A stretch of 64,000 nt of DNA from an uncultured Bacteroidia bacterium (GTDB lineage Bacteria > Bacteroidota > Bacteroidia > J057 > CALLMJ01). Shown one piece after another: positions 26,480 to 30,758 of the stretch. Every line of letters starts with the position of its first letter. The first letter of the stretch is position 1. The DNA lies in NCBI GenBank assembly GCA_938005475.1, contig CALLNY010000022.1, forward strand, positions 2,437-66,436. The letters are read 5' to 3'. The position numbers and the translations under genes were made by a program. The notes beneath the pieces were generated by a model. That model did not search any database, was not told the DNA's origin, and saw only the letters and a program-made list of their open reading frames with translations.

Positions 26480-29326
26480 TTAAGATTGAGTTTTTTGAGA
26501 AGTTTGGGAATTTAGTATTAAATCCATGGTAATGGGGCTTGCTACAAATATAGAGGTAATTACCCCTACAAAGAACCCAATAAGCATCGCAAACATAAAC
26601 CCTTTAATGACCTCACCGCCGAATAAAAATAAAATTAGGGCAGACAAAATGGTAGTTAAACTTGTGATTAACGTTCTGCTTAAAGTTTGGTTAATACCTG
26701 CGTTAAAAATTTTTTCGTAATCAAATTTAGACTTGGTATCGTTGATAATTTCGCGGATGCGGTCAAATACGACAACGGAATCATTAATATCATAACCTAC
26801 AACGGTTAGTATTGCGGCTATGAAAGATTGGTCTAATTCTAGGGAGAAAGGTAAGAAATCTAGATAGCTTAATAACGAGAAGAAGCCCATTACAGTAAAA
26901 ACATTAAAGATAAGCGAAGCAATAGCTCCCAATCCGAACTGCCAGCGAGTAAATCGGAGTAAGATGTATAAAAATATGATAATCAAACTGAAAATCACGG
27001 AGTAGTAAGCACCAACTACAATGTCTCTTGCAACAGTAGGACCGACTTTGGTAGATTTTACTATACGGGGATTAGGGGTAGAATTTTCTTTTTTAAGGGT
27101 TTCAATAATAATATTCGCAACTTTTTCGTCTGCATCTTGTTGATTAACAAGATAATTAGTGGTAATCATTATTTGATTTTTAGCTCCAACGGTTTTGATG
27201 ATAGGCATATTATTTTCGAAGGCTTGTGTCAAGCTTCCTCTGACTTTGTCTAACTGTACTTCGGCGTTATCATATTCTACGACGAATTGTCTTCCCCCGA
27301 CAAAATCTACTCCATATTTGAAGCCGAGCGTAAAAATGAAAGCGAGGTATGCCGCCATAAGACCACCAATAACGTAGTAGGTTTTTTTTCTTAATCCAAT
27401 GAAATTATAGTTAGCTTCGGTAAGTTTTTTGTATAATCCTGAGGTACCGAATTGTAATTTCTTTATACCATCTTCATTACGGATTAAGTATTCAATGAGC
27501 ACTCTTGTAACTAAAAGAGCGGCAATTAAAGTAGTTACGATACCAACCATTAAAGTTACAGCGAAACCTTTGATAGGACCTGTCCCAAAATTATAGAGTA
27601 CAAGACCTGTCAAGAAAGTGGTTGCGTTGGAGTCTAAAATAGCAGAAAGGGCTTTCGAGAAACCTTCGGAAACAGAGAATTTAATAGATTTACCTGCGGC
27701 AAGTTCTTCACGTATTCTTTCGTAGATTAAGATGTTGGCATCGACAGCCATCCCCATTGTTAGGACAATACCTGCAATACCAGGTAAAGTGAGTACAACA
27801 TTAAATGCAGAAGAGATACCAAAAATAAAGAACAAGTTAAAAATTAAAGCGATATCAGCTATAATACCTGCTGTTTTGTAGTAGAAAGCCATAAAAATAA
27901 TAACAATGATGAAGCCTGCTATGAAAGACAAAATACCTTGATGGATGGTATCTTGCCCAAGGGATGCACCAACAATTTCTTCACCTTCAATTCTTGCGGG
28001 AGCATCCATCTTTCCTGACGTTAGAATAGTTGCTAAATCTTTAGCTTCTTCTATGGTAAAATTCCCTGAAATTTGAGATTGACCATTCGGAATAACCGAG
28101 TTTACGGTAGGATAAGAATACACAAAACCATCCAGCACTACTGCGATAGATTTGTTAAGGTAATCGGTGGTCATTTTTTTCCATTTTTTTGCACCTTCAA
28201 CGTTCATACTCATAGACACGATAGGCATATTGCGGTTTTGGGGGTCGAAATCTTGTCGTGCATCAACAATAGTGCTTCCATCTAAGGGAGCTTTATTATC
28301 CCTATTAGTTTTGATGGATATCAAAGTAAGGTATTGGGAAGCGGCGGCTTCAGGTTTAGCTGTCCATAAAAAACGAATATCATCAGGCATCACATTTTGT
28401 ACTTCTGGTAATGCCAACATTTTGTTGACTTCTGCGGTATCGGAAATTAAAGCATAGCCTACAATAGGTTCGTTTCCTTTCATCCCCTCAAAATTGGGAA
28501 AAGCTAATTTGGCAAAAAGCGGATTTTCTTTTTTAAATTTTTCGCGTTTCTGCTCATCGGTCAATGCGGAATCTTTTTGTGTAGTATCAACAACTACTCC
28601 GTTGATTTTTCTTACTTCTTCATTTGCTTTTTCAAGGTATTTAAAGGATTCACTAATAGGATAAGTTGGCCAGAACTCTAATTGTGCAGTACCCCTTAAT
28701 AATTTTCTTACTCTGTCTGAATCTTTTACACCAGGTAGTTCAACCAAAATACGGTTAGAACCATACTTTTGTATGGTTGGTGAGGCGACACCGAAACGGT
28801 CTATACGTTTACGTAGGACATCAAAGGTTTGGTCAATAGCTTTATCAGCCTTATCTTTGAGAGCTTTAGCGATTTGGTCATCTGAAGCGTCAAAAGTCAA
28901 GCCTAATCCTTGAGCGAAGTAGGTAGCTAATTTGGCTTGAGGAGCTAATTCCTTAAAACTTTGTATGAATAAATCTACATAATTACTGCTGTTCGTGGAA
29001 GTTAATCCATTCGCTTTTGTAATAGCTTTGTTTACTAAAGTATCTTTGGGGTCGTAAGCATTGGCTCTAATAACCTCATCTATACCTACCTCCAAAGTAA
29101 CAAACATACCTCCTTGCAAATCTAGCCCCAAAGACATAGAATTTTCTCTGTATTTTTTGTAAGCATCGAAGTTCTCTTGGTCTTTGAACCATTCTACTCT
29201 TTGCTCGACGGTCATTTCATTAAGCATACTATCCGTGCTTAAACGCATTATTGTGTAGTACAAATTGTATGCACATATCAGTGCAAAAATCACTAATAAT
29301 GTTAAAACTAATCCTCTATTTCTCAT
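26480..29326 (-). CDS. secDF: Fused protein translocase subunit SecDF
   Basis: LGLDLQGG, RIDRFGV, TLPGIAGIVLT.GMAVDAN.LIYERIREE, GVDFVGG, GY.INDSVVVFDRIRE, TLSRT. Confidence 0.98.
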   Translation of the reverse strand: MRNRGLVLTLLVIFALICAYNLYYTIMRLSTDSMLNEMTVEQRVEWFKDQENFDAYKKYRENSMSLGLDLQGGMFVTLEVGIDEVIRANAYDPKDTLVNKAITKANGLTSTNSSNYVDLFIQSFKELAPQAKLATYFAQGLGLTFDASDDQIAKALKDKADKAIDQTFDVLRKRIDRFGVASPTIQKYGSNRILVELPGVKDSDRVRKLLRGTAQLEFWPTYPISESFKYLEKANEEVRKINGVVVDTTQKDSALTDEQKREKFKKENPLFAKLAFPNFEGMKGNEPIVGYALISDTAEVNKMLALPEVQNVMPDDIRFLWTAKPEAAASQYLTLISIKTNRDNKAPLDGSTIVDARQDFDPQNRNMPIVSMSMNVEGAKKWKKMTTDYLNKSIAVVLDGFVYSYPTVNSVIPNGQSQISGNFTIEEAKDLATILTSGKMDAPARIEGEEIVGASLGQDTIHQGILSFIAGFIIVIIFMAFYYKTAGIIADIALIFNLFFIFGISSAFNVVLTLPGIAGIVLTMGMAVDANILIYERIREELAAGKSIKFSVSEGFSKALSAILDSNATTFLTGLVLYNFGTGPIKGFAVTLMVGIVTTLIAALLVTRVLIEYLIRNEDGIKKLQFGTSGLYKKLTEANYNFIGLRKKTYYVIGGLMAAYLAFIFTLGFKYGVDFVGGRQFVVEYDNAEVQLDKVRGSLTQAFENNMPIIKTVGAKNQIMITTNYLVNQQDADEKVANIIIETLKKENSTPNPRIVKSTKVGPTVARDIVVGAYYSVIFSLIIIFLYILLRFTRWQFGLGAIASLIFNVFTVMGFFSLLSYLDFLPFSLELDQSFIAAILTVVGYDINDSVVVFDRIREIINDTKSKFDYEKIFNAGINQTLSRTLITSLTTILSALILFLFGGEVIKGFMFAMLIGFFVGVITSIFVASPITMDLILNSQTSQKTQS

Positions 29327-29405
29327 GATGTATAATTCTTAAAAATTGATAAATAAAATAATAAAAACTGCTTTATGCAGGTATAAAATATGAAGGCAAT
29401 TAATA

Positions 29406-29732
29406 TTATTGCGCTGAGGGAGGGGCGTTTGCCCAATATTTGTTTAATTTTTTTTCTGAGGGCAGTATAAAACGATAAGTCGCTAACTTAGTTGATATAA
29501 AAATCTTTGATATAAGATTTTTGGTATATTGAAATGGATTTTGGGTAGTTTGCTTTGATACATAAGAGACGGATTGAAGCGAATTTTGGATAGGGGATTG
29601 GGAATAAATGCTAGAATTTTTTTGATATAGTGTTTCGAGTTTTTTGATATAGTTAAGGTAAAACTTCGTTTTGTCTATTTTAGATATAGACATCCAAAGT
29701 ACAGGAATAAGAAGTATTACCTTAAAGTACAT
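29406..29732 (-). CDS. secDF leader ORF (108 aa), candidate translation-arrest peptide
   Basis: ATG at 29732, 8 nt after tRNA-Arg. Hydrophobic N-terminus MYFKVILLIPVLWMSIS; C-terminus KYWANAPPSAQ; stop 79 nt before the secDF ATG. Confidence 0.6.
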   Translation of the reverse strand: MYFKVILLIPVLWMSISKIDKTKFYLNYIKKLETLYQKNSSIYSQSPIQNSLQSVSYVSKQTTQNPFQYTKNLISKIFISTKLATYRFILPSEKKLNKYWANAPPSAQ

Positions 29733-29740
29733 AAAAATAG

Positions 29741-29814
29741 TGCGTTCGGAAGGATTCGAACCCTCAACCTTTTGATCCGTAGTCAAATGCTCTATCCAAT
29801 TGAGCTACGAACGC
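29741..29814 (-). tRNA. tRNA-Arg(ACG), no encoded CCA
   Basis: GCGTTCG-TAGCTCAATTGGATAGAGC-A-TTTGA-CT ACG GA-TCAAA-AGGTT-GAGGG-TTCGAAT-CCTTC-CGAACGC-A; promoter TAATTTTG at 29836-29829. Confidence 0.97.
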
Positions 29815-30023
29815 ATCAAATTGGCTTGCAAAATTAGAAGTATTTTTTTAAACAACAAACTTTTTAAAAAAATTTGGTATAAAATTAAAAATCCTACCTT
29901 TGATAGGCAGGACACAAAGAATTTAATGCTCAGAAATGAATATGTACTATACAAAATTATATTTTTTCTGGATAGATAAAATAATCTTACATGAGCGGTT
30001 AAAAGAAGTGATAGATAGCAACA

Positions 30024-30758
30024 TTATGCTTTTTGTTCGATTTTAATTAACCAATGGTCGAGTATAGATAGCAAAATATAAAACAAAATTGCCATAGCTA
30101 GCCCCATATATTGAAATAAGATTAATAAAATTCCAGAAGCTAAAATAAAAAGAAAACGTAGTTCATTTCCTTTCCAACCAAAATGTTTAACTTTTAAAGA
30201 GAAAAGCGGTAGTTCAACGATAAGTAAAATACTATTTACTATACAGACTATCGGGATAAACCAATTAGACTGAATGACTGTGGCAAAATTCCATAAATTT
30301 TGGAATTGGATTAGAGGTAAAGAACAAATAAAAATTGCGTTAGCAGGAGTAGGTAAACCAATGAAGGAGTCGGATTGTCGTGGATCGATATTAAATTTAG
30401 CAAGACGCAGTGCGGAGAATAAAGGGATTAAAGCAGGAGTAGATTTTAAGAGGGTCTCAAAAAAATTATTGCCATAAAAAGAGAGGAATTGTGGGTGCAT
30501 AAGTCTAAAAAGGATGAGTCCAGGAGCAACGCCAAAAGTAATTAGGTCTGCCATAGAATCTAATTCTTTACCCAAAGCAGTTTGTGCATTTAATTTTCTA
30601 GCAGCGAAGCCATCAGCAAAATCAAAAATTGTAGCAAACAAAATAAAATAAGCGGCGTCAATAATTCCATTAGGTTGAAATGAGGCAAATATCGATAAAC
30701 ACCCCAATATTAAGTTAATAGAAGTCAATAAGTTAGGTATATATTTTTTAATTTCCAT
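30024..30758 (-). CDS. pssA: CDP-diacylglycerol--serine O-phosphatidyltransferase (CDP-alcohol phosphatidyltransferase)
   Basis: PNLLT..NL, DFADGFAAR.L...T.LGKELDS.ADLITFGVAP, LRLAKFN, FIGLPTP. Confidence 0.88.
   Translation of the reverse strand: MEIKKYIPNLLTSINLILGCLSIFASFQPNGIIDAAYFILFATIFDFADGFAARKLNAQTALGKELDSMADLITFGVAPGLILFRLMHPQFLSFYGNNFFETLLKSTPALIPLFSALRLAKFNIDPRQSDSFIGLPTPANAIFICSLPLIQFQNLWNFATVIQSNWFIPIVCIVNSILLIVELPLFSLKVKHFGWKGNELRFLFILASGILLILFQYMGLAMAILFYILLSILDHWLIKIEQKA

Follow-up and report, generated by a model that had tools for sequence, protein, structure and literature searches.

A conserved leader reading frame ending in Asn-Ala-Pro-Pro upstream of secDF in an uncultured Bacteroidia bacterium: a candidate arrest peptide

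We describe here a short leader open reading frame (ORF) that lies directly upstream of secDF in a 64,000-nucleotide (nt) stretch of DNA (the window) from an uncultured Bacteroidia bacterium (GenBank assembly GCA_938005475.1, contig CALLNY010000022.1, positions 2,437 to 66,436). The features of the locus are encoded on the minus strand, in the order tRNA-Arg(ACG), leader ORF, spacer and secDF. The tRNA gene (29740–29814; anticodon ACG) was identified by ARAGORN and by the Rfam tRNA model (70.8 bits), and its 3' end is 8 nt before the ATG of the leader ORF, which spans 29406–29732 and comprises 108 codons and a TAA stop codon. The spacer of 79 nt (29327–29405) is AU-rich with an excess of C over G, and is followed by the ATG of secDF at position 29326. 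The secDF gene (26480–29326) is a fused form encoding 948 amino acids, with Pfam matches to SecD_SecF_C, SecDF_P1_head, SecD_1st and Sec_GG (SecD/SecF domains, E 6e-70); among named records, Bacteroidota or Bacteroidia metagenome-assembled genomes give the best matches to its product. It is a single-copy gene, as both PF02355 matches of the genome fall in one frame. The first-pass annotation of this DNA had placed a 108-codon ORF at 29732–29406, between tRNA-Arg and secDF and 79 nt from the latter, and these coordinates hold.

The leader ORF begins with ATG at 29732 and ends with TAA at 29408–29406. Its peptide reads MYFKVILLIPVLWMSISKIDK...LNKYWANAPPSAQ and terminates in ...KYWANAPPSAQ; its delineation draws on the sequence, its homologues, a profile test and the ratio of nonsynonymous to synonymous substitution (dN/dS), all described below. 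Codons 5–16 (29685–29720; VILLIPVLWMSI) form a hydrophobic core of 12 residues (mean Kyte-Doolittle hydropathy 2.4 over 13 residues), which by the hydropathy calculation alone is a localization signal or membrane anchor, in agreement with the signal-like N-terminus of the first-pass annotation, and which is conserved across the clade alignment introduced below. Codons 17–40 (29613–29684; SKIDKTKFYLNYIKKLETLYQKNS) form a conserved block adjoining the membrane segment, as recognized from alignments and dN/dS, and codons 41–98 (29439–29612) form a variable linker of low complexity. Within this middle region, words resembling TATATCAAA occur several times at positions 29506–29650 of the minus strand, among them a direct repeat of 30 nt (70% identity), which suggests that slippage or duplication shapes an unconstrained linker. 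Codons 99–105 (29418–29438) encode Y-W-A-N-A-P-P, the putative arrest motif, and are followed by the tail S-A-Q and the TAA codon (29406–29417), which is variable across the clade.

One account of this frame is that it arose by chance in a G-poor non-coding leader, with its conservation stemming from an RNA element. The 413-nt interval between the tRNA and secDF is indeed G-poor on the coding strand (A150 T146 C83 G34), which makes two of the three stop codons rare, and the window ORF is absent from a large protein collection. However, an open frame of this length (at least 110 codons) is reached on the coding strand in 0.32% of 5000 mononucleotide shuffles of the interval, and the longest open frame of the opposite strand has 36 codons. 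Conservation is seen at the amino-acid level while synonymous change is near saturation, and indels in four loci leave the frame intact. As for an RNA element, Rfam finds nothing above threshold over 29200–30100 except the tRNA, and no conserved covarying structure was found; an inverted repeat of 20 nt toward the 5' end of the ORF (29653–29672/29706–29725) shows neither clade conservation nor covariation and was rejected. We regard the chance-frame account as effectively refuted, and the pattern of sequence conservation indicates that the leader ORF is a real, conserved gene. Its product belongs to no described family among those searched: Pfam returns only sub-threshold noise (SFV1_VP5 and SLATT_6, E about 0.01), the YajC family PF02699 gives no match to the leader ORF at E up to 1, and the ESM Atlas gives no usable match to the peptide.

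In a six-frame search of relatives, three genomes were seen to have an equivalent ORF ahead of secDF. In the sister species of the same genus (G001), the leader has 113 amino acids and ends in ...AVNAPPIC, and in two other families of the order, the leaders have 93 and 124 amino acids and end in ...IIIRAP-stop (G008) and ...PALAP-stop (G012), respectively. Two metagenome contigs (L131 and L132), whose SecDF proteins are 91% and 88% identical, carry leaders that end in ...IWVNAPPCVSII and ...IWAHAPPII, and a profile search of 1.84 billion representative proteins adds four more, with the ends ...WVNAPPCFSII (near L131), ...DVNAPPIF, ...IWVNAPPFV and ...IWLNAPPFV. A fifth match of the latter search, a protein of 3401 amino acids aligned in 10 stretches, was taken as low-complexity and rejected, and a leader ORF of this kind was not found in a metagenome locus whose SecDF is 51% identical (L133). 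We refer to the sequences with this type of ending as the clade, which consists of the window, G001, L131, L132 and P0001–P0004, with P0001 nearly identical to L131.

All eight clade sequences carry [N/H]-A-P-P, with N in seven and H in one (L132), and a Trp is located two residues before the N/H in six of the eight. The A-P-P is followed by two to five variable residues (SAQ in the window, and IC, CVSII, II, CFSII, IF, FV and FV in the others). In the four loci with DNA, the A-P-P codons are GCC CCT CCC, GCT CCA CCC, GCA CCG CCT and GCT CCC CCA, i.e., they differ by synonymous changes only; because the residues are fixed while every codon is free, selection acts on the peptide and not on an RNA motif. 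For the first 41 codons of the same four sequences, dN/dS is 0.10–0.28, with 46–91% of synonymous sites changed. For the middle region (codons 41–98), nonsynonymous divergence between members (pN, 0.49–0.63) is about the same as synonymous divergence, and the length varies, with the reading frame kept through the indels of the four loci. By these sequence comparisons, the first 41 codons are under purifying selection and the middle evolves freely. The comparison had been set in advance as a check by the first-pass annotation, and it came out on the side of the prediction: in related genomes, the ORF that precedes secDF has a conserved N-terminus and, at its C-terminus, a conserved [N/H]APP, and the part between them varies freely. 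Within the genome of the window, 9 of 3022 ORFs of 45–220 codons pass a loose arrest-like filter, and only the secDF leader looked genuine. A frame-blind DNA pattern for N-A-P-P was uninformative (27 matches vs. 11 for the reversed control) and was set aside.

The family extends well beyond the clade. A profile built from the window, G001, G008 and G012 peptides matches 65 of the 77 genomes of the order, and secDF is downstream in 28 of the 30 loci that were fetched. The leaders of these 28 end in RAP-stop (22), LAP-stop (2) and QAP-stop (2), the remaining two being the window and G001. To avoid circularity, we also built a hidden Markov model from four NAPP/HAPP peptides of the clade only, and searched it against the 645 ORFs of at least 50 codons in loci L103–L130. 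Of the 26 X-A-P-stop leaders of the order, this model recovers 25 (E 6e-8 to 2e-3); its only other matches are two ORFs in truncated loci, and the ∼618 ORFs that remain give no match even when E is raised to 10. The leader ORF is thus clearly, as judged by sequence, a homologue of the X-A-P-stop secDF leaders of the order. The Pro-Pro form would be the derived one by parsimony (as opposed to a rooted tree), because the other families of the order that have the leader, and the other sampled orders, use Pro-stop.

The part shared by the family consists of the hydrophobic segment and a following block, K-I/L-D/N-K-x-x-F-Y-x-x-Y-F-K-x-L/I-E, which is its best-conserved part in the order and drives the profile matches in the 65 genomes. 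The block is ∼24 residues long and in the large-genome families reads K-I/L-D/N-K-x-S-F-Y-H-H-Y-F-K-V-I-E-E-V-E-x-R-N-S; a simple force sensor would not need such a block. A second stretch of hydrophobic residues precedes the RAP-stop in many relatives in the order, and it is weak in the clade of the window. Such a block might alternatively mean that the ORF encodes a small membrane protein in its own right, such as an accessory subunit for SecDF or SecYEG, in which the conserved block does the work and NAPP is a structural or binding motif. That the conservation of the family peaks in this block (K-I/L-D/N-K-x-x-F-Y-x-x-Y-F-K) and not at the C-terminus argues for such a role, as a pure force sensor needs no block. 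On the other hand, the middle of the peptide is unconstrained and variable in length, the peptide has no Pfam family, and YajC, a small membrane protein often encoded before secDF, is accounted for elsewhere, with a bona fide YajC (E 7.5e-29) on another contig of the genome. The C-terminus also argues otherwise: the P-site codon of the motif is 96–124 nt from secDF in the clade, the median spacer of the family is 111.5 nt, and a Pro-stop or Pro-Pro that is conserved at the C-terminus and lies within a fairly narrow range of distances from secDF is the signature of an arrest leader. We consider the membrane-protein explanation quite unlikely, although the two roles are not mutually exclusive.

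In a sample of 84 secDF loci from across the phylum, 42 have a leader ORF with a hydrophobic N-terminus and an X-[A/G]-P-stop ending (NAP 24, GAP 8, RAP 5, QGP 2, and one each of LAP, QAP and RGP), and NAPP plus a tail is found in two, the window and G001. The other 40 are without a leader ORF according to the filter, four of them having less than 240 nt of upstream DNA. A profile built from 13 members of the Cytophagales type returns 30 proteins, all 30 with the NAP end. The stop codon after X-A-P is TAG in 23 of 26 order loci (L103–L129) and in 23 of 42 loci of the phylum sample (L021–L100), as compared with 9 of 32 and 25 of 110, respectively, among the ORFs of at least 200 codons in the same loci, although these genomes are related and not independent. 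TAG is read by release factor 1 only.

Leaders of this general kind are already described. In the sections drawn on here, Fujiwara et al. (2024, Nat Commun 15:2711, PMC10987492) report a group named uDF_NAP-stop, consisting of 396 leader ORFs before secDF, mainly from subsets of three Bacteroidota orders and divided into six clusters. Their features are an N-terminal localization signal and a C-terminal Pro, typically as N-A-P, followed directly by the stop codon (PMC10987492). The tested member, ‘uSecDF_Echin_vietn’ (a label that we read as Echinicola vietnamensis; 125 amino acids), was found as peptidyl-tRNA to about 30–50% with E. coli ribosomes and to more than 50% with B. subtilis ribosomes; by toeprinting, the A site was occupied by the stop codon, and the arrest required N(-3) and P(-1) (PMC10987492). 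The same sections describe RAPP-like ‘RQH’ query motifs, which include HAPP, QAPP, RGPP, HGPP and RAP-stop, with NAPP not in the list, and of these, HAPP (uDF_RQH_Lachnospirales) and QAPP (uA_RQH_Myxococcales) were shown to stall (PMC10987492). For the RAPP type, R-A-P on the P-site tRNA blocks attack by the A-site Pro-tRNA (Morici et al. 2024, PMC10951233). In the portions of the 2024–2025 papers on which we rely, Pro-stop and RAPP-like motifs are treated as separate classes, and the argument is made that RAPP-like motifs arose by repeated convergence and that the Arg is irreplaceable (PMC10987492, PMC12992588). The main text of the 2024 paper, to the extent covered here, is silent on stop-codon identity (neither ‘UAG’ nor ‘release factor’ occurs; PMC10987492). 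A literature search found no paper on a NAPP arrest peptide, and ‘NAP-stop’ was found only in the 2024 paper, its preprint and unrelated texts. ‘ANAPP’ is absent from the supplements of that paper on genomes, secA/yidC upstream ORFs (uORFs), plasmids and primers, a check outside of which falls the secDF uORF table, which may hold a NAPP member; the secA/yidC uORF tables contain six ‘NAPP’ matches (one in file 6 and five in file 7), and the three inspected are unrelated proteins (PMC10987492).

The window leader resembles the uDF_NAP-stop group in that both are leader ORFs of ∼100–130 codons directly before secDF on the same strand, with an N-terminal localization signal (for the window, by hydropathy alone), a variable middle and a C-terminal N-A-P. 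It differs in that the stop after N-A-P is absent, and N102-A103-P104 is followed by Pro105-Ser-Ala-Gln and TAA. With respect to the Cytophagales-type cluster that ends in ...ISPNAP, there is no detectable overall similarity (hhalign probability 0.4%, with only the six motif residues aligned), and the RAP-stop leaders of the order were compared with the published uDF_NAP-stop family by layout. The resemblance to the RQH peptides, including ApdA and ApdP (RAPP), is in the C-terminal region: an X-A-P-P near the C-terminus of a signal-bearing leader before secDF or secA, and then a short tail, which in the RQH systems is dispensable in the material covered (PMC10987492, PMC7897499, PMC10951233, PMC12992588). 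The clade member L132 carries HAPP itself. Unlike the RQH peptides, seven of the eight clade sequences have Asn as the first motif residue, which places the window outside of the [R/Q/H]-[A/G]-P-P pattern. Sequence homology of ApdA and ApdP to the leader is not evident from Pfam, which gives no match, or from inspection of the motifs, which differ.

SecM (before secA) and VemP (before Vibrio secD2F2) likewise are secreted monitoring substrates that precede a translocase gene, and nascent chains that sense force are best exemplified by the arrest peptides encoded before sec genes. However, homology to the window leader is not evident from Pfam, the arrest sequences differ by inspection, and the secDF of the window is the sole, housekeeping copy and not a second copy as is the case with the secD2F2 of VemP. 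The first-pass annotation had likened the leader to SecM, VemP, ApdA and ApdP; the shared leader logic stands, but the closest system is the combination of uDF_NAP-stop and the RQH motifs in the published sections (PMC10987492). The kind of leader is thus one that has been described, and the clade is new in that N-A-P-P replaces X-A-P-stop. As far as can be read from sequence, the clade connects, in one homologous family, two motif classes from the literature.

By analogy with these systems, our best reading is that the leader is a secretion-monitoring arrest peptide of secDF that has switched from stalling at termination to stalling in elongation. In this configuration, tRNA-Arg, the leader ORF and secDF would be transcribed together from the promoter before the tRNA, and the leader would be translated, with its N-terminal hydrophobic segment engaging the Sec/YidC machinery. 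With ...W-A-N-A-P on the P-site tRNA and Pro-tRNA occupying the A site, formation of the peptide bond would be blocked or slowed, as for RAPP, HAPP and QAPP. On the basis of the RAPP-type peptides (PMC10951233, in the part used here), the predicted stall has Pro104 (CCT, 29423–29421) in the P site and Pro105 (CCC, 29420–29418) in the A site, whereas the ancestral X-A-P-stop form would block release at the stop codon instead. Active export would pull on the nascent chain and relieve the stall, poor export would prolong it, and a prolonged stall would raise the expression of secDF. A stall at termination is impossible for the window form, because the stop is replaced by Pro plus two to five residues in the clade. 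Stalling in elongation is favored because A-P-P is strictly conserved, because N and H replace each other at a position for which H and Q are validated residues, and because N at the same position is required in the NAP-stop peptides. On these analogies, we think it reasonably probable that the ribosome stalls at Pro104/Pro105, and we hold secretion-dependent control of secDF by the leader with somewhat less assurance.

A promoter-like pair of the Bacteroidetes type, as read from sequence, is located just upstream of the tRNA gene (29829–29859, minus strand), and consists of TTTG at 29859–29856, a gap of 19 nt, and TAATTTTG at 29836–29829. The consensus of the Bacteroidetes -7 box is TAnnTTTG, and the box before the tRNA is the sole one of this type on the minus strand within 500 nt upstream of secDF; a motif scan gave no further minus-strand match to TANNTTTG from 29327 to 29828. 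The TTTG...TAATTTTG pair precedes the tRNA in G001 as well. It is likely that the tRNA, the leader ORF and secDF share one transcript, because the only -7 box, paired with a TTTG 19 nt upstream, precedes the tRNA in both genomes. The first-pass annotation had seen no strong terminator between the ORF and secDF, and our scan found no terminator-like site there, the sole nearby one being the T arm of the tRNA itself. The tRNA-Arg(ACG) gene also adjoins the leader ORF in G001, L131 and L132, and the gap between the tRNA and the ATG is 6–8 nt in all four clade loci with DNA (window 29733–29859; L002 1376–1494; L131 306–385; L132 668–749). Processing of the tRNA may generate the leader mRNA and leave it nearly leaderless, with 6–8 nt before the AUG of the ORF. 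In the other families of the order, the neighbor upstream of the leader ORF differs. Farther upstream of the tRNA, the window has a CDP-alcohol phosphatidyltransferase gene (30024–30758, minus strand; Pfam E 2.4e-18), and G001 has the same neighbor.

In SecM and VemP, regulation works through the opening of a hairpin that covers the Shine-Dalgarno site, and Bacteroidota are largely without Shine-Dalgarno initiation. We computed partition-function folds for 44 family loci with and without a 31-nt footprint of the stalled ribosome held unpaired, and followed positions -20 to +12 around the secDF start. On average, this region is unpaired with a probability of 0.572 without and 0.585 with the footprint; the gain exceeds 0.1 in four of the 44 loci, and in none when the footprint is shifted by 30 nt. 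For the window, the start accessibility is 0.52 in both cases, and the spacer fold has a z of -1.3, with 23 of 200 shuffles folding as well. A SecM-type opening of a hairpin is not supported by the spacer-fold z and the unchanged accessibility of the start, and no such effect is predicted at the secDF of the window, in contrast to SecM and VemP. This fits the suggestion of the first-pass annotation that the coupling may differ from the opening of a Shine-Dalgarno hairpin. The small spacer hairpin mentioned there is present (29380–29368), reading CTGC-ATAAA-GCAG on the minus strand and having the loop TTTAT on the plus strand. The CTGC-N5-GCAG element is kept in three of four clade spacers (the window; L002, 1870–1882; and L131), with an invariant stem and the loops ATAAA, TAGCA and AATTT, and is absent in L132; there is no covariation of this hairpin among the clade spacers.

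The property that does recur is the base composition of the spacer. Between the leader and secDF, the C–G skew is positive in 43 of 44 loci (median (C-G)/(C+G), +0.28), as compared with 25 of 37 secDF leaders without a detected uORF (median +0.14), 24 of 43 for the 100 nt before the uORF (median +0.05) and 37% of 737 generic leaders of this genome, each 80 nt long (median -0.06). Spacers with C over G recur across genomes in which the G+C content of the spacer is anywhere from 19% to 72%. A ribosome stalled on the leader TnaC of the E. coli tna operon reportedly hides a rut site from Rho. The C-rich, G-poor stretch after the leader ORF recalls that site, and the C-rich spacer may be rut-like. 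Our leading guess for the coupling, which we hold with low confidence and by analogy with TnaC, is that the stalled ribosome would shield the spacer from Rho or nucleases. The resemblance would be limited to this arrangement, as homology to TnaC is absent, tryptophan sensing is not expected, and the window form would stall at a sense codon.

A number of points weigh against an arrest function. The tested NAP-stop peptide, when fused directly to lacZ-alpha without its stop, gave full-length product and no arrest in the part of the source used here (PMC10987492); because the stop-less fusion abolished arrest, no stall occurred in that construct with a sense codon after N-A-P. In ApcA, ApdA and ApdP, the Arg of RAP was irreplaceable by any of the 19 other residues with B. 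subtilis and E. coli, so that Asn fails in those peptides (Fujiwara et al. 2025, PMC12992588, as far as covered here). The window peptide is without a match in a collection of 5.8 billion proteins (word-based search, E≤0.01), with four relatives in the representative library. NAPP occurs once in this genome against 4.5 expected, a difference that is not significant and resembles the general depletion of A-P-P. The spacer skew of the window (+0.33) is calculated over only about 15 G+C bases and is weak evidence, and in general, one genome supplies part of the skew controls, and the related genomes are not independent. The regulatory link to secDF is left unexplained by the folding models, in which the accessibility of the start is unchanged on stalling, and stalling and control of secDF in the clade are argued from sequence and analogy. 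Elongation factor P (EF-P), in addition, could relieve an A-P-P pause in vivo.

The first two of these points also bear on the possibility that the leader is a relic, which lost its arrest together with the stop after N-A-P, so that the ORF now encodes no more than a small peptide, secreted or in the membrane, or serves as an inert leader, with constitutive expression of secDF. The requirement of the tested peptide for its stop codon (PMC10987492) and the failure of Asn to substitute for Arg in ApdA, ApdP and ApcA (PMC12992588), both within the sections covered, fit this possibility, as does the weakness in the clade of the second hydrophobic stretch that many order relatives have. However, a relic would not be expected to keep A-P-P in eight of eight sequences with synonymous changes only, while the flanks, the tail and the middle have diverged to near saturation. 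A change from stop to Pro takes at least two base changes, and its outcome has been maintained since. Moreover, one member has HAPP, a validated arrest motif in the published sections (PMC10987492). We judge a relic to be unlikely.

A different role for the motif would be that of an EF-P-dependent Pro-Pro pause, which would make secDF expression depend on EF-P activity or the supply of Pro-tRNA. A-P-P is among the stronger EF-P-dependent pause motifs, and it is under-represented in the long ORFs of this genome (38 observed vs. 70.6 expected). The conservation, however, reaches beyond Pro-Pro to the W at -4 and the N/H at -2 relative to the first Pro, the N-terminal hydrophobic signal is kept, and the homologues use Pro-stop, in which EF-P is not involved. 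This explanation is, in our estimate, very unlikely, and an arrest peptide that stalls in elongation remains the reading that we prefer.

In its most complete form, this reading describes one homologous family with two arrest modes, R/Q/L-A-P-stop acting at termination and N/H-A-P-P acting in elongation, with coupling to secDF by shielding of a C-rich, G-poor spacer and not by the opening of a hairpin. As a whole it is tentative, and we consider it possible but on balance doubtful. If it is true, X-A-P on the P-site tRNA would block both hydrolysis by the release factor and attack by Pro-tRNA, Asn would replace the ‘irreplaceable’ Arg on Bacteroidota ribosomes, and RAPP-like motifs would arise from Pro-stop by descent and not solely by convergence. 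If, instead, NAPP does not stall, the case would show a route by which such leaders decay. The homologous R-A-P-stop and N/H-A-P-P leaders are a natural pair of constructs for comparing P-site geometry toward the release factor and toward Pro-tRNA, and the same pair asks whether Bacteroidota ribosomes accept Asn at the position of the Arg. The case also sharpens the question of how, in a phylum largely without Shine-Dalgarno pairing, a stalled ribosome would activate the gene downstream of it.

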